The translations under genes were made by a program, and so were the position numbers. Below, in pieces: positions 11,461 to 38,557 of a stretch of DNA of 45,884 nucleotides. Position 1 is the first letter of the stretch. Each line of letters opens with the position of its first letter. The notes beneath the pieces were generated by a model, which ran no database searches, was not told where the DNA came from, and saw only the letters and a program-made list of their open reading frames with translations. The stretch is from Gemmatimonadales bacterium UBA6960 (GTDB lineage Bacteria; Gemmatimonadota; Gemmatimonadetes; Longimicrobiales; Gaopeijiaceae). The DNA lies in the NCBI GenBank assembly GCA_963580305.1, contig CAUZJY010000001.1:1-45884 (forward strand). The letters run 5' to 3'.

Positions 11461-12531
11461 TTGAACGCCGGCGAGCTGCACTTGGTCGTCCCCGGTCCAC
11501 TCGACCAGCGGACGGGTGGCTACCTGTACGATGCGCGCATGGCCGCCGGACTCGCGAAGCTCGGCTGGACGGTCGAGGTCCATTCGCTGGACGGAGCTTT
11601 TCCGGAGGGTGACGAGCGCGCGGAGGCGAGCCTGACCGCGACGCTCGCGGCGATTCCCGACCGTGCCCGCGTGCTGATCGACGGGCTCGGAATGGGCGCC
11701 CTTCCCGGACCCGTGCACGCTCATGCCGGGCGGCTGCGCCTGCTCGGGCTCGTCCATCACCAGCTCGCCGACGAGACCGGGCTCCCGGAGAAGGAGCGCA
11801 CGCGGCTGGGGGCGCTCGAGCGCGAGGCGCTGGCCGCGTGCGCGGGGGTGATCGTAACGAGCACGTTCACCTGCGAGCGGCTAATCGAGTACGGAGTGCC
11901 CCGCGCGCTGCTGCGCGCGGTGCCGCCGGGAACGCAGCCCGTCCGCCCGGCCGCCGGACCGGGGACGGGACAGCCACCGCTGCTGCTGTGCGTCGCGACG
12001 GTGATCCCGCGCAAGGGGCACGACGTGCTGGTGCGCGCCCTCGAGCGGATCCAGGCGATGCCCTGGAGCTGCAGCTGCGCGGGCAGCCTCGACAGCGCGC
12101 CCGAGTATGCGCGCGCTGTGCTCGCGCAGGTGCGGACCGCCGGGCTCGAGGGTCGCATCGACTTCCCGGGCGAGTGCGGCGAGCTGCTGCTCGAAGAGCT
12201 CTATCACGGCACCTCGCTCTTCGTGCTGCCGTCGCACTACGAGGGGTACGGGATGGCGTACGCCGAGGCGCTCGTGCGTGGGCTGCCGGTGGTGGGCACG
12301 ACCGGCGGCGCCGTTCCGCACACGGTCCCCGCCCGGGCGAGCATCCTGGTTCCGCCTGGGGACGACGCCGCGCTCGCGGAGGCACTCGGCCATCTGCTCG
12401 CCGGCTCGGCTGGTGCGGCGCGGCGCGCCCGGCTCGCCTTCGCGGCGCGCCAGCACGCGCTCGAGCTCCCCGGCTGGGATCGCGCGGTGGACGTGTTCGC
12501 GCGCGCCCTGCTCGAGCTCGCCCCGGACTGA
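11461..12531 (+). CDS. Glycosyltransferase family 4 (GT-B, group 1)
   Basis: C-terminal GT1 core LFVLPSHYEGYGMAYAEALVRGLPVVGTTGGAVPHTV and N-terminal Rossmann-like half. TTG start is uncertain. Confidence 0.8.
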   Translation: MNAGELHLVVPGPLDQRTGGYLYDARMAAGLAKLGWTVEVHSLDGAFPEGDERAEASLTATLAAIPDRARVLIDGLGMGALPGPVHAHAGRLRLLGLVHHQLADETGLPEKERTRLGALEREALAACAGVIVTSTFTCERLIEYGVPRALLRAVPPGTQPVRPAAGPGTGQPPLLLCVATVIPRKGHDVLVRALERIQAMPWSCSCAGSLDSAPEYARAVLAQVRTAGLEGRIDFPGECGELLLEELYHGTSLFVLPSHYEGYGMAYAEALVRGLPVVGTTGGAVPHTVPARASILVPPGDDAALAEALGHLLAGSAGAARRARLAFAARQHALELPGWDRAVDVFARALLELAPD

Positions 12532-12537
12532 GGCTGC

Positions 12538-13353
12538 ATGGTCGAGCGCTTCACCGCCGACTGGCTGGCGTTGCGCGAGGCGGTCGATCACCGCTCGCGT
12601 CCCGAGGGGTTGCTCGTCCCGCTGCGCGCCTGGTGGCGGGCGCGTGGGGCGTCGCACGTGGTCGATCTCGGAAGCGGCACGGGCTCGAACCTGCGCTACC
12701 TCGCGCCACGGCTGGATCCGGGGCAGCGCTGGCGGCTGGTGGATCACGACCGCGAGCTGCTGCGCCGGGCGGGTGCCGGGCAGGTGGCGGGAGCCGAGGC
12801 GGTCGAGCTCGTCGCGGGCGACCTCGTGCGCGAGGGGATCCTGGCCGCGCGCGGCGCCGAGCTACTGACCGCGTCGGCGTTGCTCGATCTGGTTTCGGGG
12901 AAGTGGCTGGAGGAGCTGGTCGGCGCATGCGCGTCCGCGCGCGCGGCGGCTCTGCTCGCGCTCAGCTGGGACGGTGCCATCGAGTGGGGCGGGGCGTCCG
13001 ACCCGGACGATGCGCTCGTGGCCGAGGCGGTGCGCGCGCACCAGCGGCTCGACAAGGGACTCGGCCCCGCGCTCGGAGCCACGGCGGCGGCGGCCGCCGA
13101 GCGCGCCTTCGCGGCTGCCGGGTACCACACCGAGCTCGCCCCGAGCCCGTGGGTACTGGGCCTGGAGGGTCCCGGCGAGCGCGCCCTCGGGGTCGAGTTG
13201 ATCGACGGCTGGGCCCGCGCGGCCGCCGAGCAGCGCCCCGAGCACGCCACCCGGCTGCGGGCGTGGGGAGAGCGGCGGATGGCCGCGGTGAGCGGCGGAC
13301 CCTGCGCGCTCATCGTCGGCCACCTCGACCTGCTCGCACTCCCACCCGCATGA
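12538..13353 (+). CDS. Class I SAM-dependent methyltransferase
   Basis: Motif I VVDLGSGTGSNLRYL followed by the acidic loop LVDHD. Starts 6 nt after the GT4 stop. Confidence 0.75.
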   Translation: MVERFTADWLALREAVDHRSRPEGLLVPLRAWWRARGASHVVDLGSGTGSNLRYLAPRLDPGQRWRLVDHDRELLRRAGAGQVAGAEAVELVAGDLVREGILAARGAELLTASALLDLVSGKWLEELVGACASARAAALLALSWDGAIEWGGASDPDDALVAEAVRAHQRLDKGLGPALGATAAAAAERAFAAAGYHTELAPSPWVLGLEGPGERALGVELIDGWARAAAEQRPEHATRLRAWGERRMAAVSGGPCALIVGHLDLLALPPA

Positions 13354-14414
13354 GCCAAGGGGCGGTGCCGCACGGCGCGCGGCACCCCGGGTGGGCGCGC
13401 ATGCTCCCGCGCTTCGCGATCAGCGCCGGGCTGCTCGGCGGGCTCGCCTGGCTGCTCGACGCGGACGCGCTGGTCCGCCGCCTCATCGACCTCGATCCCT
13501 TCTGGGTGGTGGTGGGGCTCGCGATCTCGCTTCCGCAGATGGCGCTGCTCGCGCTGCGCTGGCGGCTCACCGCGGGCCGACTCGGCCTCGACCTCCCCTT
13601 CGGCACCGCGCTGCGCGAGTACTACCTCGCCACGTTCCTGAACCAGCTCCTTCCCGGTGGGGTGATGGGGGACGTGTCGCGCGCGTGGCGGCACGGCCGC
13701 GCGGGTCCCGGTGCACCGCCCCACGGGAGCGCGATCGCGTCGCCCGTTCCGGCTTCGGGGCTTGGGCTCGGCCCGGCCGCGCGCGCGGTCGTCCTCGAGC
13801 GGGCGTCCGGGCAGCTGGTGATGGCGGCGGCCGCGGTGGTCGCCCTCGGGAGCCTGCCGGTGGCCGGAGCGGTGCGCGCGCGCGTGCTGGTGATCGTGCT
13901 GGGCGCGGCAGCGGCCGTGGTGGTCGTGGCGTTCACGCTCGAGCGGGCCCGCGTCGCGTCCCGCCTCGCGAGCGCGGTGTGGCGCGACGTGCACGCGGCG
14001 TTGCTCGCGCGCGACGTCGTGGGCGCGCAGCTCGCCACATCCGTGCTCGTGCTGGGGACCTACGTGGCCACGTACCTTGCGGCCGCGCGCGCGGTCGGGC
14101 TCACCACTCCGTTCGCGGTGCTCCTGCCGCTCGTGCCTCCGGTGCTGCTCAGCATGCTGATCCCGGTGACGGTCGCGGGGTGGGGGATCCGCGAGGCGGC
14201 GGCGGCCGGGCTGTGGAGCCTGGTGGGGCTCACCGCCGAGGACGGGGTCGCGGCCTCCGCCGCGTACGGCCTGCTCGTCCTCGCCACCACCCTTCCCGGG
14301 GCGGCCGTGTTGGTCAGCGCAGCTCGAGGTCGAAGAGCAGATCCTCGCCCAGATGGAAGTGCCGGCAGCGCGGGCGGAGCGCCTGGTCCAGGCTCGCCAC
14401 CGGCGGAAGGGTGA
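13350..14414 (+). CDS. UPF0104 / lysyl-PG-synthase-TM-like flippase-like membrane protein
   Basis: ATG 13350 overlaps the methyltransferase stop (ATGA). Polytopic membrane protein with REYYLATFLNQLLPGGVMGDVSRAW and IPVTVAGWGIREAAA blocks typical of this family. The 3' end overlaps the convergent RibD-like gene by about 100 nt, so the true C-terminus is uncertain. Confidence 0.65.
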   Translation: MSQGAVPHGARHPGWARMLPRFAISAGLLGGLAWLLDADALVRRLIDLDPFWVVVGLAISLPQMALLALRWRLTAGRLGLDLPFGTALREYYLATFLNQLLPGGVMGDVSRAWRHGRAGPGAPPHGSAIASPVPASGLGLGPAARAVVLERASGQLVMAAAAVVALGSLPVAGAVRARVLVIVLGAAAAVVVVAFTLERARVASRLASAVWRDVHAALLARDVVGAQLATSVLVLGTYVATYLAAARAVGLTTPFAVLLPLVPPVLLSMLIPVTVAGWGIREAAAAGLWSLVGLTAEDGVAASAAYGLLVLATTLPGAAVLVSAARGRRADPRPDGSAGSAGGAPGPGSPPAEG

Positions 14415-34291: not shown

Positions 34292-35209
34292 TCAGGCCGT
34301 GGAATCGTTCGGTACGAAGAGCGGTGTGGTGAGGTAGCGCGCGCCGGAGTCGGGCGAAATGCACGCCACCCGGTGTCCGGTGCCCAGCTCGCGCGCGACG
34401 TTCAGAGCCGCCTCCACGATCGCCCCGCTGCTCATCCCGACGAACAGTCCCTCCTCGCGCGCCAGCCGGCGGGACACGTCGAAGGCGGTCTCCTCCCACG
34501 CCTTCACCATCCGATCGATGAGGGAGCGATCGAGGTTGGGCGGCACGAATCCCGGGCCCATCCCCTGGAACTGGTGCTGGCCGCGGGGCTCGCCATGCAG
34601 CACCGCGCTCCGCCCCGGCTCCACCGTGACGATCAGCACGTCCTCCAGCCGCTCCTTCAGGAAGCGCCCGACCCCGCTGATCGTGCCGCCCGTGCCCGAG
34701 CCGTACACGAACGCGTCGATGCGCCCACCCAGCGCTTCCCACAGCTCCGGAGCGGTCGTCTCGTAATGCGCGCGCGGGTTGGCGGGGTTGTCGAACTGGT
34801 TGGGGAGGAACGCACCCTGCTCGTCGCGGATCCGCTCTGCCTCGGCGATCGCGCCGATCATGCGGAGCTCCGGATCGGTGAGCACGAGCTTGGCACCGTA
34901 CGCCTCGAGCGTGCGCTTGCGCTCCTCGCTCATCTGCGCCGGCAGCGTGAGGATCAGCTTATAGCCCCGGGCCGAGGTGATCTGCGCCAGCCCGATCCCG
35001 GTGTTGCCCGACGTAGGCTCGACGATCGTGTCGCCGGGCTGGATCAGCCCGCGCCGCTCCGCGTCCGCGATCATGGCGAGCGCCGGACGGTCCTTGATCG
35101 ACCCGCCCGGGTTCATTCCCTCGACCTTGATCCAAACCTCGGCCATGCCGGGCTCCACGATCCGCTCCAGCCGGACCGTGGGAGTGCGTCCGATGAAGTG
35201 GTCGATCAT
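34292..35209 (-). CDS. cysK: Cysteine synthase (O-acetylserine sulfhydrylase)
   Basis: NPGGSIKDRPALAMI (PLP lysine), EPTSGNTGIGLA, GSGTGGTISGVG, GMSSGA. A CysM assignment cannot be excluded. Confidence 0.9.
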   Translation of the reverse strand: MIDHFIGRTPTVRLERIVEPGMAEVWIKVEGMNPGGSIKDRPALAMIADAERRGLIQPGDTIVEPTSGNTGIGLAQITSARGYKLILTLPAQMSEERKRTLEAYGAKLVLTDPELRMIGAIAEAERIRDEQGAFLPNQFDNPANPRAHYETTAPELWEALGGRIDAFVYGSGTGGTISGVGRFLKERLEDVLIVTVEPGRSAVLHGEPRGQHQFQGMGPGFVPPNLDRSLIDRMVKAWEETAFDVSRRLAREEGLFVGMSSGAIVEAALNVARELGTGHRVACISPDSGARYLTTPLFVPNDSTA

Positions 35210-35369
35210 GCGCGGCTCGCGCTGCGAGGAGGGCCGAGGAATCGGCGGTGGCGACGCCCAACAGGGCGATTCCGGTCAGGACCGGTCAAGGGCCGGTGGC
35301 ACCTTGCGCCCGCGCGGCTGGCGGGTCGATCTTCTGGCGTTCAATGCCCCTGTACGGCTTGGAGCACGC

Positions 35370-35447
35370 ATGATGCGCCGTCCGAACAACCGGAACAATC
35401 CCAATCGCCGGCTCCCCGGGAGTTGCCGGCTCGGATTGACTCCGTAG
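35370..35447 (+). CDS. Candidate asnB leader peptide, 25 aa, Asn-rich (MMRRPNNRNNPNRRLPGSCRLGLTP)
   Basis: GGAG 5 nt upstream of ATGATG. Five Asn codons (AAC AAC . AAC AAT . AAT) at 35385-35405. Stop at 35445-35447, 26 nt before the terminator stem. Confidence 0.55.
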   Translation: MMRRPNNRNNPNRRLPGSCRLGLTP

Positions 35448-35473
35448 CGGTACGCGGACAGATCCAAAGGCCG

Positions 35474-35510
35474 AGAGGCGGCTCCCCGCGGGAGCCGCCT
35501 CTTTCGTTGT
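35474..35510 (+). terminator. Intrinsic terminator/attenuator in the asnB leader
   Basis: Perfect 13-bp stem AGAGGCGGCTCCC (35474-35486) / GGGAGCCGCCTCT (35490-35502), loop CGC, followed by TTCGTTGT. It lies 56 nt upstream of the asnB ATG. Confidence 0.7.
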
Positions 35511-35565
35511 CGGATTGGCGTCGCCGCGGGAGCACCACCCCAACACGCAGCAGGGAAACACATCC

Positions 35566-37236
35566 ATGTGCTCGATCCTCGCCATCCTCGACATCCCCGG
35601 GGACGCAGAAGCGTACCGCGCACGCGCGCTCAAGCTGTCGCGGCTCCAGCGCCATCGCGGACCAGACTGGTCCGGGGTGGACGTCTGCCCGGGCGGGGTG
35701 CTCGTGCACGAGCGGCTCGCGATTGTCGATCCCGCCAGCGGTGCCCAGCCCCTGTACGGACCCGGCGAGCGGACCGTGCTGGCCGTGAACGGCGAGATCT
35801 ACAACCACCGCGAGCTGCGGAAGGAGCTGACGCAGCACTACCCGTTCCGCACCGAGTCGGACTGTGAGATCATCCTCGCGCTCTATCGCAAGATGGGCGT
35901 GGAGCTGCTCCAGAAGCTGAACGGCATCTACGCCTTCGTGCTGCGCGATCTCGACAGAGGGACCTGGATGGTGGTGCGCGACCCCATCGGCGTCGTGCCG
36001 CTCTATCTCGGATGGGATGCGCAGGGAGTGCTCCACGTCGCGTCCGAGATGAAGGCGCTCGTGCCCGTGTGCACCACCGTCCGCGCATTCCCACCGGGGC
36101 ACGTGATGGAGACCGGAGACGCCGAGCCGCGCCCGTATTACGACCGGGCCTGGCGCTCGTACGAGAACGTGATGAACGCGCCGGTTCCCGTCTCCGAGCT
36201 CCGTCCGGCGCTCGAGCGAGCCGTGCACGCACAGCTCATGAGCGACGTACCCTACGGCGTGCTGCTCTCGGGCGGGCTAGATTCTTCGATCATCGCCGCG
36301 ATCGCAGCGCGCTACGCGAGGAAGCGCATCGAAGAGGACGACCAGGCGGAGGCGTGGTGGCCGCGGTTGCACTCCTTCAGCGTCGGGCTCGAGGGCTCCC
36401 CGGACATGGCGTTCGCCGAGCGCGTGGCGGAGCACATCGGCACCGTGCACCACGGCTTCGTCTACACGATCCAGGAGGGGCTGGACGCGGTCGTCGACGT
36501 GATCCACCACCTCGAGACGTACGACGTCACGACCATCCGTGCCGCCACCCCCATGTACCTGATGGCGCGGCGCATCCGCGCCATGGGGGTGAAGATGGTG
36601 CTCTCGGGGGAGGGCGCCGACGAGGTATTCGGCGGCTACCTGTACTTCCACAAGGCGCCCAACGCGAAGGAGTTCCACGAGGAGACGGTACGCAAGCTCG
36701 ACCGGCTCCATCTGTTCGACTGCCTGCGCGCGAACAAGGCGATGGCGGCCTGGGGGGTCGAGGCGCGGGTGCCCTTCCTCGACGTGGACTTCCTGGACGT
36801 GGCGATGGCCATCGATCCGGCGCTCAAGATGCCGCGCAAGGCGGAAGGGCGGATCGAGAAGCAGGTGCTGCGCGACGCGTTCGCCGACATTCTTCCCGAG
36901 ATCGTCACCAAGCGGCAGAAGGAGCAGTTCAGCGACGGGGTGGGATACGGCTGGATCGACGCGCTCAAGGCCAACGCCGCCGTGCACGTTTCGGACGCGG
37001 AGATGCGGCAGGCGGCGGTGCGTTTCCCGCACAACATGCCCGACACCAAGGAAGCCTACTACTACCGCTCGGTCTTTGAGGGCTTCTTCCCGCTCTCGTC
37101 CGCGGCGCGGACTGTCATGGGGGGCAAGTCGATCGCCTGCAGCACTCCCGAGGCGCTCGCCTGGGACGCTGCGTTCGCGAGCGCGGCGGACCCCTCGGGG
37201 CGCGCGGTGGCCGGGGTGCACGTAGAGGCGTACTGA
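35566..37236 (+). CDS. asnB: Asparagine synthase (glutamine-hydrolysing)
   Basis: N-terminal MCSILAIL (catalytic Cys2), RGPDWSG, NGEIYNH, then synthetase domain LLSGGLDSS, SGEGADEVFGGY. Start at ATG 35566, not the track start 35515. Confidence 0.93.
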   Translation: MCSILAILDIPGDAEAYRARALKLSRLQRHRGPDWSGVDVCPGGVLVHERLAIVDPASGAQPLYGPGERTVLAVNGEIYNHRELRKELTQHYPFRTESDCEIILALYRKMGVELLQKLNGIYAFVLRDLDRGTWMVVRDPIGVVPLYLGWDAQGVLHVASEMKALVPVCTTVRAFPPGHVMETGDAEPRPYYDRAWRSYENVMNAPVPVSELRPALERAVHAQLMSDVPYGVLLSGGLDSSIIAAIAARYARKRIEEDDQAEAWWPRLHSFSVGLEGSPDMAFAERVAEHIGTVHHGFVYTIQEGLDAVVDVIHHLETYDVTTIRAATPMYLMARRIRAMGVKMVLSGEGADEVFGGYLYFHKAPNAKEFHEETVRKLDRLHLFDCLRANKAMAAWGVEARVPFLDVDFLDVAMAIDPALKMPRKAEGRIEKQVLRDAFADILPEIVTKRQKEQFSDGVGYGWIDALKANAAVHVSDAEMRQAAVRFPHNMPDTKEAYYYRSVFEGFFPLSSAARTVMGGKSIACSTPEALAWDAAFASAADPSGRAVAGVHVEAY

Positions 37237-37343
37237 GGAGAGACGGAAGGGGCCAGGAGCTCTTCTGCCCGATCTGGAACTGAGACGCGGCGCTACACCG
37301 TAGCCGTACGCGCGCGATCCTCCCCTCGGGGCCGACGATCCAG

Positions 37344-38302
37344 GTGCCGTCGGAACCGACGCTGCCGATTCCCCACCAGGAGCCGCCGTTCACGGTGCGC
37401 CTGCTCGAGCGGCTCCAGCGCCGTGGGCACCGGGTCCTCTTCTTCTGCCGCGACGACTCGGTCGCGGAGCAGGCCCGCGCGCTCGGGGTGCCGGCCGAGG
37501 TCGCGCACCTGGGCGGCCACGCCTCGGTCCACCACGCGGTGGGGTTCGCGCGCCAGCTGCGGCGGCACCGGCCCGACGCGCTCCTGCTCGGCACCTTCAA
37601 GAAGAGCTGGCTCGGGGCCTTGGGCGGCCGGCTCGCAGCGGTCCCGCGCGTGATCGCGCGCATCGGCCTCGAGACCGACCTGCCGAGTCGCGGCCCCTTC
37701 TACCGGATCGCGTTCGCGCGCTGGGTCGACCGCGTGGTGGTGAACGCGCGTGCGCTCCGGGGCGCCGTGCTCGCGAGCCTGCCGCGGCTCGATCCCGAGC
37801 GGGTCGTACTCGTCTGGAACGGCGTGGAGGAGCCCGTCCGACGGCATTCGCCGGGTGCGCTGCGCGCGCAGCTCGGGATTCCGCCGGGGGCGCCGGTCCC
37901 GAGGAGGCGGCGCTGCGCCGCGGCGTGCGCACGCTGGGGATTGCCGAGCGCGTCGTTTTCCTCGGACACCGTGAGTCGGTCGGCGACGTGCTCGATGCGC
38001 TGGACGTCTTCGCCGTCACCTCGCGCACCGAAGGGATGAGCAACGCCATGCTCGAGGCGCTGGCCGCCGGCGTTCCCGTTGTGTCGACACCGGTGAGCAG
38101 CGCGGCCGACGCGCTCGAGCCGCTCGGCGACGGCCGGCGGTCCGGACTGATCGTCGAGCCCGCCGCGGAGACCCTCGTGCGGCTGCTCGCCGATCGGGAC
38201 GCGCACGGGCGGATGGCGGAGGCGGCGCGCGCCCGCGCGCGCGACCGCTTCGCGTGGGAGGACAAGATCGATTGCTGGGAGGCGCTGCTGCTCGGCCGCT
38301 GA
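37344..38302 (+). pseudogene. Decayed GT4 glycosyltransferase (frameshifts plus internal deletion)
   Basis: N-half ..VRLLERLQRRGHRVLFF..VVNARAL..VWNGV.. in one frame. C-half GIAERVVFLGHRESVGDVLDALDVFAVTSRTEGMSNAMLEALAAGVPVV in another. About 40 aa around the usual GRL..KG block are missing near 37880-37920. The extreme N-terminus is also out of frame. Confidence 0.7.
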
Positions 38303-38310
38303 ACAGCCAT

Positions 38311-38343
38311 GGGGCCGGCAGGGAGGAGTTCCCTGCCGGCCCC
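38311..38343. terminator. Perfect 14-bp hairpin between convergent genes (bidirectional terminator candidate)
   Basis: GGGGCCGGCAGGGA (38311-38324), loop GGAGT, TCCCTGCCGGCCCC (38330-38343). A second 7-bp hairpin GTCCGCC-ATGG-GGCGGAC lies at 38365-38382. Confidence 0.6.
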
Positions 38344-38394
38344 ACGGATCGATCACACGGCTCGGTCCGCCATGGGGCGGACCCGAAGACGTGT

Positions 38395-38514
38395 TTACTT
38401 CTTCGCCTTCCTCGCCTTCTTGATCTTGCGGCCCTTCTTGGCCGTCTTCTTCGCCGTCTTCTTCGCCGGCCTCTTCGCCGTCTTGCGCTTTGCAGCTCGC
38501 TTCTTGGTAGCCAC
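38395..38514 (-). CDS. 39-aa lysine-rich, highly basic small protein (histone-H1-like tail composition)
   Basis: Not in the ORF track. GGAGG 6 nt before GTG 38514. Translation MATKKRAAKRKTAKRPAKKTAKKTAKKGRKIKKARKAKK-stop (TAA). The ORFs reported here in other frames and on the other strand look like artefacts of the AAG/CTT repeat. Confidence 0.65.
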   Translation of the reverse strand: MATKKRAAKRKTAKRPAKKTAKKTAKKGRKIKKARKAKK

Positions 38515-38557
38515 GTGAAACCTCCAGATGGTGGTGGTACGGCAAGCGACGTAATCT

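Follow-up and report, generated by a model that had tools for sequence, protein, structure and literature searches.

The asparagine synthetase gene asnB on contig CAUZJY010000001.1 of Gemmatimonadales bacterium UBA6960, of which 45,884 nucleotides (nt) were analysed (the window, taken at its full length), is most probably controlled by a functional leader-peptide transcription attenuator that responds to asparagine (Asn) by sensing charged tRNA-Asn. A short open reading frame (ORF) crowded with Asn codons, a set of alternative RNA pairings and a GC-rich terminator-like hairpin lie one behind the other upstream of the gene, and the judgement is drawn from the sequence of these elements, from their conservation in close relatives and from their recurrence in other phyla. 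All three support the original prediction made for this DNA, which had read the region as a trp/his-type attenuator of the 1-2-3-4 layout keyed to Asn. The promoter, the translation of the ORF, the stalling of the ribosome and the response of the gene to Asn supply are put forward conditionally below.

The leader ORF (35370..35447, plus strand), as read from the sequence, has 25 codons plus TAG and encodes MMRRPNNRNNPNRRLPGSCRLGLTP. It starts with the ATG at 35370, a further ATG following at 35373, and stops with the TAG at 35445-35447; a Shine-Dalgarno-like GGAG (35361..35364, plus strand) is placed 5 nt 5' of the first ATG. The presumed regulatory codons AAC AAC CGG AAC AAT CCC AAT (35385..35405, plus strand) comprise five Asn codons in seven, which start at 35385, 35388, 35394, 35397 and 35403. 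This density is a rarity, in that the cluster is the sole site with at least four Asn codons per seven in the six frames of the 45,884 nt, and 5000 shuffles of the intergenic region with dinucleotides preserved gave no short ORF with at least four Asn codons. The window has a GC content of 70%; 0.8% of its triplets are Asn triplets, and across 21 likely genes Asn accounts for 1.8% of codons, 86% of these being AAC (AAU 26 vs AAC 159, that is 14% AAU).

The ORF is followed by a perfect 13-base-pair (bp) stem (35474-35486 with 35490-35502), built from the terminator 5' arm, here segment 3 (AGAGGCGGCUCCC, 35474..35486, plus strand), and the terminator 3' arm, segment 4 (GGGAGCCGCCUCU, 35490..35502, plus strand), around a CGC loop at 35487-35489. 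The tail behind it (35503..35510, plus strand; UUCGUUGU in the RNA and TTCGTTGT in the DNA) holds five U in eight positions and is interrupted, which makes it moderately U-rich and weaker than a canonical U-tract. From the tail to the asnB ATG at 35566 there are 56 nt, and the hairpin sequence occurs once in the window. Two more segments lie within the leader ORF. Segment 1, the anti-antiterminator strand (GCCGGCUCC, 35407..35415, plus strand), begins 2 nt past the final Asn codon; segment 2 (GGGAGUUGCCGGC, 35418..35430, plus strand) can take either segment 1 or the terminator 5' arm as its partner. Towards the terminator, GGGAGTTGCC (35418-35427) is complementary to GGCGGCTCCC (35477-35486) over 10 bp including two G-U pairs, the antiterminator strands at these positions being GGGAGUUGCC and GGCGGCUCCC; towards segment 1, GCCGGC at 35425-35430 can pair with GCCGGC at 35407-35412. 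The inner 1:2 hairpin is itself enclosed in an extended hairpin, P1 (35396..35438, plus strand), through an outer stem of CAAUCC (35396-35401) and GGAUUG (35433-35438), and this outer stem overlaps the AAU-CCC-AAU codons. As a whole the 166-nt leader is more stable than 200 out of 200 shuffles (z = -3.1). The 25-codon ORF, its GGAG, the five Asn codons in seven and both sets of pairings had been named in the original prediction and agree with the sequence in position and count; of the terminator described there, the perfect 13-bp hairpin 56 nt before asnB stands, and the U-richness of the tail has to be toned down. Since the stem is a near-perfect palindrome, a covariance model also scores the minus strand, at 35475-35503 in the window (28 bits) and at the corresponding place in relatives. 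On that strand the tail, UCGGCCUUUGG, lacks U-richness, and bidirectional termination therefore seems unlikely.

The calculated energies of the isolated structures rank as they do in classical leaders, with -12.4 kcal/mol for the inner 1:2 hairpin (35407-35430), -19.4 for P1, -22.6 for the 2:3 duplex and -28.9 for the terminator 3:4, the last two being the values that the original prediction had proposed to compare. With a ranking in which 3:4 exceeds 2:3, and 2:3 at least equals 1:2, the decision between the structures would be a kinetic one. Minimum free energy (MFE) snapshots of the growing transcript prefer P1 from its synthesis until segment 3 is complete, and at full length the terminator state beats the antiterminator state by 6.4 kcal/mol. 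Folding was also carried out with a 28-nt ribosome footprint whose A site was set on a chosen codon, the transcript starting at 35340 and being truncated at the terminator loop. When the footprint sits on any one of four of the five Asn codons (35385, 35388, 35397 or 35403) the fold is 2:3, extended by GGCU/GGCC, and when it sits at the stop codon, or when the transcript from 35340 carries no ribosome, 1:2 is retained. With the A site on the Asn codon at 35403 the footprint would cover segment 1. Equilibrium folding is unable to prove such a switch.

These properties suggest the following sequence of events. Transcription probably starts around 30 nt 5' of the leader ORF, and a ribosome would translate that ORF while RNA polymerase moves on, the two being coupled. 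Where Asn-tRNA(Asn) is ample the ribosome would pass the five Asn codons and reach the stop codon at 35445, segments 1 and 2 would pair locally, in front of the ribosome or in its wake, and the 3:4 terminator with its U-rich tail would form, so that transcription ends at about 35503-35510, before asnB. Where Asn-tRNA(Asn) is scarce the ribosome would stall on the Asn codons, especially on AAU-CCC-AAU at 35397-35405, with its leading edge covering segment 1; the emerging segment 3 would then find segment 2 free as its partner, the terminator would be pre-empted, and the polymerase would go on into asnB.

In close relatives the ORF and the pairings are conserved as one unit. Scans of contig collections with AsnB gave, among the matches listed, proteins of at most 69% identity, and the closer loci were fetched through a protein search and contig look-ups, yielding contigs whose AsnB is 69-89% identical to that of the window. 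Where AsnB identity is 71-89%, 11 of 12 distinct loci have the element, meaning the ORF together with its structures; conservation of the mini-ORF and its Asn codons was a check that the original prediction had named. In the remaining locus (L172) the element is absent, and 45 nt separate the end of an upstream gene from asnB. Ten of the 11 leaders keep the ATG, L173 having a GTG start; the ORF is 22-26 codons long in ten, and in L173 17 codons from an ATG or 25 from the GTG. Frame and stop position are conserved too. The three indels that fall within the leader ORF measure 3, 9 and 3 nt and those of 1-2 nt lie just past the stop, and this contrast is the signature of a translated frame. In eight relatives, picked for AsnB similarity and not for Asn content, 31 of 197 codons (15.7%) are for Asn, and the same Asn positions show synonymous AAC/AAT changes.

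The leader peptides of these relatives read MNRPALNPNNNPNRRLPRGRRPGLVP (L161), MICRANNRNNPNRRLPESRRPGCAP (L163), MTRDRNSWKNRLPRSRRPGFAL (L164), MTHDRNNWKNPNHRLSRSRCPGFGL (L166), MIRTDLNRNHPHRRLPRSRRPGCVP (L167), MTSNALLRNSNRRFPGGRRPGDNL (L168), MNRHALNLDNPNRRLPRGCRPGLVP (L169), MNRHAINLDNPNRWIPRGRRPGLVP (L170), MSRHALNLDNPNRRLPRGRRPGLVP (L171) and (..ANA)MNTNGRLPRSRRLGYAR (L173). Their N-terminus is not conserved, and the conserved C-terminal 'RRLPRSRRPG' is a mere spelling of segments 1 and 2. The leader of L173 is homologous in spite of a different upstream neighbour, a YebC-family gene, which ties the element to asnB and not to cysK, the gene that lies upstream in the window.

Pairing was counted over the nine sequences of alignment A1. 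For the inner 1:2 hairpin, 96.8% of cells are paired and five pairs vary on one side only; the outer stem of P1 is paired in 78%, three of its pairs having changed on both sides; and the 2:3 antiterminator is paired in 92%, nine of its ten pairs being kept in all or nearly all of the nine sequences. Segment 2 has changed only by A>G or C>U, substitutions that are wobble-compatible with its pairing to segment 1 as well as to segment 3. In the terminator stem nothing varies but the foot pair, which covaries between A-U and C-G, and the spacer from the hairpin to asnB is the least conserved part of the leader. As a control, sliding the 3' partners by 1-3 columns lowers pairing to 40-58%. Because the aligned sequences are mutually similar, these counts speak for conservation with compatible variation, not for strong covariation.

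The same design turns up well outside the close relatives. A survey of the 450-nt upstream regions of 160 diverse asnB loci finds short ORFs with Asn clusters mainly in high-GC genomes. The leader ORF or its Asn-rich part is MMTIRLLNAKNRNRPLRRDRSRRPLA in Rubricoccaceae of the Rhodothermota (L002), MRTCSNANGRNSNRTPPGG... in a Gemmatimonadales locus (L004), MFGPNRNDPNSNPARWDGAGGSLL in Thermoanaerobaculia of the Acidobacteriota (L006) and MSAGFNNRNSNNPNAPLRVDD in the Gammaproteobacteria (L027); the Asn-rich part is ...LNNNANNNNRNRGRAGV in L054 (Dyella, Rhodanobacteraceae), L095 and L103, ...NINNRANNNANRWRARA in L108 and ...CNCNSNRND... in L111. Each of these nine loci has a strong hairpin (-16 to -32 kcal/mol) 19-31 nt past the stop of the ORF, with U-runs clearer than that of the window and amounting to U7-U9 in L002, L004, L006 and L111. 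Across 39 high-GC loci, the window excluded, a strong terminator at most 160 nt from asnB goes together with an Asn-rich ORF (counts 9/1/1/28, Fisher p = 4.6e-7). In each lineage a segment 7-24 nt past the last Asn codon is complementary to that leader's own terminator 5' arm, and such own pairs exceed cross-lineage pairs in stability by 3 kcal/mol on average (permutation p = 0.0014).

How far these leaders share ancestry varies. R1, a covariance model of the Gemmatimonadota leaders, was searched over about 1 Mb and finds L002 (expectation value ~1e-6), L004 (~7e-4) and, weakly, L108, and nothing further; L006, L111 and the Dyella-type leaders were not found in that search and are therefore either too diverged or independent inventions. 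A further alignment (A3) was discarded as contaminated by minus-strand palindrome matches. The Dyella-type core differs, having GGCCCGC-loop-GCGGGCC as its hairpin and a segment 2 (CGGGCC, GCGGGCU or GCGGGUC) just before the stop codon, and set against the Gemmatimonadota-type core it makes at least two sequence families of one design. The recurrence with unrelated sequences suggests convergent evolution of one solution. In the Dyella type (L054 2770-2899, L095 1755-1884, L103 1757-1886, L108 1723-1846) the Asn run is C-terminal in a longer ORF of 40-42 codons, the N-terminal part of which (M.x[FY]LA[NS]H..K..A...VAA) looks conserved as a peptide, which is unusual for a leader peptide.

Several side observations belong with these leaders. 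In leader ORFs the rare codon AAU nearly equals AAC (46 vs 48). The arrangement AAU-NNN-AAU-CG directly before segment 1 is common to the window (35397-35405), L002, L004 and L006 (alignment A4), and may reflect outer-stem pairing (AAUCC/GGAUU), common ancestry or a tuning of decoding speed. A Flavobacteriaceae metagenome-assembled genome of 42% GC (L051, 2876-2968) carries MLLANNNNNNTMP, with six consecutive Asn codons, and a clean terminator 22 nt after it and 33 nt before asnB. A co-directional gene ends 148 nt before that terminator and antiterminator complementarity is weak; the locus may be a third, Bacteroidota version, or its terminator may be that of the co-directional gene. Asn-rich ORFs in L069 (Glaciecola) and L114 have no terminator and were treated as chance occurrences in AT-rich upstream DNA. 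The cultured Gaopeijia maritima (L174, CP144380.1, AsnB 69% identical) has a 15-bp GC-rich hairpin (1438-1470) 30 nt before asnB. The hairpin has no U-tract and the ORF preceding it has one Asn codon only; the leader may have decayed or may be regulated in another way, and with no Asn-rich ORF the organism was ruled out as a ready test host.

A number of findings weigh against an Asn-responsive attenuator in the window. The U-tract is short and interrupted there and in close relatives (UUCGUUGU or GUUCCUUAU), and the mycobacterial RNA polymerase reportedly needs a U-tract (PMC3993855). A generic promoter and terminator scan of 34900-37500 made no call, the hairpin included; in the case of the hairpin a G-U extension displaces the tail window, which is why it is missed. 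The position of the GGAG motif is not conserved in the leaders of relatives. Two of these relatives (L164 and L167) have only two Asn codons, His-Pro-His replacing Asn-Pro-Asn in L167. Distribution is patchy, the element being absent from the Gemmatimonadota loci L001, L003, L005, L010, L172 and L174, and all the Vibrio, Shewanella and enterobacterial asnB loci surveyed, together with most of those from Bacteroidota, are without it. All the sequences come from metagenomes or metagenome-assembled genomes. On the energetic side, once segment 3 is complete and no ribosome is present the antiterminator state is 5.5 kcal/mol better than the state that retains P1, which means that switching has to be kinetic and that the basal level of read-through may be high. 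Lastly, a uniform footprint-masked MFE calculation on 19 leaders did not discriminate stalled from unstalled states, because a GC-rich 5' arm left free finds some pairing partner in almost all states.

Some of these same points could be turned into other explanations. That a translation-independent structured RNA (a riboswitch, or a protein- or tRNA-binding leader) controls the terminator and that the ORF is incidental would fit with segments 1-4, and not the peptide, being the best-conserved part of the leader, with the non-conserved Shine-Dalgarno and with the hairpin that Gaopeijia maritima has without an Asn-rich ORF. Such a reading seems quite improbable, given that start, frame and stop are kept, that indels respect the frame inside the ORF and cease to do so just downstream, and that Asn codons are 8-fold enriched in relatives and enriched again in the sequence-unrelated leaders of other phyla; no Rfam match was obtained either (T-box included), and no conserved multi-stem junction resembling a ligand pocket was seen. 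There is likewise little probability that the leader is a ribosome-dependent attenuator of another kind, one that senses general translation stress or another residue (Arg, Pro, antibiotics) or that acts via Rho or translational coupling. Arg (21%) and Pro (11%) are indeed frequent in the leader ORFs too, and the relatives with two Asn codons and the weak U-tract would suit it. However, the Arg and Pro codons (CGN, CCN) are the default coding of the GC-rich paired segments 1 and 2, where they lie, whereas Asn stands 11-fold above background in the window and is placed just 5' of segment 1, at the point where a stall would count; Asn is also the amino acid made by the gene under control, and the distant versions carry runs such as NNNANNNN together with canonical U7-9 terminators.

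An independent small gene merely adjoining asnB, be it for the 25-amino-acid peptide or for a small RNA of about 170 nt ending at the hairpin, is a very improbable account. It could point to a putative promoter and a terminator of its own, and in other bacteria RNAs and peptides that derive from attenuators can reportedly work in trans (PMC6614838, PMC7298713). Yet the spacer between hairpin and asnB contains no conserved promoter-like block, so that asnB must be transcribed through the element; the element accompanies asnB into another neighbourhood in L173, the peptide N-terminus is not conserved, and a role in trans would add to the role in cis and not replace it. What might speak for a chance ORF beside a chance palindrome is that GC-rich DNA yields many stable hairpins and that the duplex z-scores of single leaders are modest (+0.6 to -2.9). 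Against it stand the Asn density, matched in 0 of 5000 shuffles, the conservation in 11 relatives and the convergent copies in other phyla, and coincidence is effectively refuted by the conservation data. An attenuator that reads Asn codons accordingly stays the preferred explanation for the asnB leader, at the strength given at the outset.

The gene downstream is a genuine asparagine synthetase B. It occupies 35566..37236 on the plus strand and matches the NCBIfam equivalog NF006949 for the glutamine-hydrolysing enzyme with 836.7 bits (cut-off 499); its product begins MCS..., is 60-69% identical to AsnB of many bacteria among the matches listed, and in a protein search the closest AsnB proteins carry the label Gemmatimonadota. 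On the other side lies cysK (34292..35209, minus strand; TIGR01139, 408.6 bits), for cysteine synthase A, and the divergent PALP-asnB order is also found in relatives. With cysK and asnB divergent, the hairpin cannot be the terminator of an upstream gene and is taken as an internal leader terminator. A candidate promoter for the leader-asnB transcript is TTGCGC (35304-35309), an 18-nt spacer and GATCTT (35328-35333), spanning 35304..35333 of the plus strand. The block CTTGCGCGC ... TCGATCTTT, about 35 nt 5' of the leader ATG, is kept in most close relatives and its flanks are not (alignment A1, columns ~17-48), and it may be this promoter or an operator common to the divergent cysK; an E. coli-type promoter scan did not call TTGCGC-N18-GATCTT. 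In one relative (L161, 1290-1312) only 6 nt separate GATCTT from the leader ATG and a Shine-Dalgarno is lacking, and the leader ORF of this locus may be translated from a leaderless or near-leaderless mRNA.

Elsewhere in the window two features were recorded. A short minus-strand ORF at 38395-38514 would encode a Lys/Ala-rich basic peptide, MATKKRAAKRKTAKRPAKKTAKKTAKKGRKIKKARKAKK, and is nested in another frame within the minus-strand ORF 37700-38545, a longer ORF that includes an acidic Glu/Gly-rich stretch. The interval 12001-14000 has the top GC of the window (0.764) and an AT skew of -0.219, strongly negative against its neighbours. The window has no tRNA, and no Rfam family at gathering score.

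Ribosome-mediated attenuation is textbook knowledge for Trp, His, Leu, Phe, Thr and Ile/Val, and has recently been extended to Cys. The asnB leader shares with trpL, hisL, leuL, pheL, thrL, ilvL and ivbL of E. coli and Salmonella a short leader ORF with clustered codons for the end product, four segments with exclusive 1:2, 2:3 and 3:4 pairings, a terminator-like hairpin before the first biosynthetic gene, regulatory codons at or just 5' of segment 1 and a stability ranking in which the terminator exceeds the antiterminator, and the antiterminator at least equals 1:2. It differs from them in that its codons are for Asn and its gene is asnB, in having no sequence similarity to the Rfam leader families, and in its hosts, which are Gemmatimonadota, Rhodothermota, Acidobacteriota and Lysobacterales. 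The stop codon of the window ORF lies 15 nt beyond segment 2, whereas that of trpL lies between segments 1 and 2, and the Gemmatimonadota leader has a weak U-tract, unlike the enterobacterial ones. T-boxes of Firmicutes with an Asn specifier (RF00230) sense uncharged tRNA by RNA-tRNA pairing and have no translated ORF. They likewise couple Asn-related genes to the charging of tRNA-Asn via a choice between terminator and antiterminator.

Searches of Rfam 15 gave no real match, whether by a permissive scan of 34900-35900, a gathering-score scan of the window or a permissive scan of ten distant leaders. Matches to Xoo2, Xoo5 and CrfA were far below threshold and were set aside as noise. The covariance models of Trp_leader, His_leader, Leu_leader, Thr_leader and Phe_leader gave no match at gathering score or at E<=10, and with the T-box model neither the permissive scan of 34900-35900 nor the whole window gave one. 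The full-text literature searched contains no account of an asnB attenuator or of a leader with Asn codons, subscription-only comparative surveys being outside that scope, so an earlier prediction is possible. The scans and the literature searched are in agreement with the remark, made with the original prediction, that no Asn-codon attenuator is known to have been described for asnB, and the amino-acid specificity is apparently new for the classical mechanism.

Among leaders of high-GC bacteria two comparisons are close. The cysteine-responsive polycysteine short ORFs of mycobacteria (bioRxiv 10.1101/834739) are also cognate-codon-rich upstream ORFs before biosynthetic genes, in a high-GC phylum outside the usual models; they are reportedly leaderless and act on operonic expression, whereas the asnB leader has a terminator and antiterminator and looks near-leaderless only in L161. 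The ilvBNC leader ORF of Corynebacterium (PMC10272879, PMC11857589) is likewise a high-GC leader-peptide attenuator, first found as a conserved RNA motif and given a three-hairpin model, and differs from the asnB leader in its branched-chain amino-acid codons and in belonging to another sequence family.

A wider proposal, unlikely as a whole, is that Asn-codon leaders are an unrecognised broad class of attenuator, with at least two sequence families in at least four phyla, that the roughly 1:1 use of AAU and the AAU-NNN-AAU arrangement make asnB respond also to the decoding capacity of tRNA-Asn, for example to its queuosine state, and that the terminated RNA of around 170 nt might act in trans as rnTrpL does. 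The understanding of the attenuation mechanism itself is unchanged by what is reported here. The small ORF and the RNA element are currently missed by genome annotation and by Rfam; their recurrence with unrelated sequences is useful for studying the origins of attenuators, and cultured Dyella are candidate test hosts once the leader has been confirmed in an isolate. If the reading is true, Asn would join the amino acids sensed by ribosome-mediated attenuation, and asparagine biosynthesis would gain its first regulatory model in Gemmatimonadota, Rhodothermota, Acidobacteriota and Rhodanobacteraceae.

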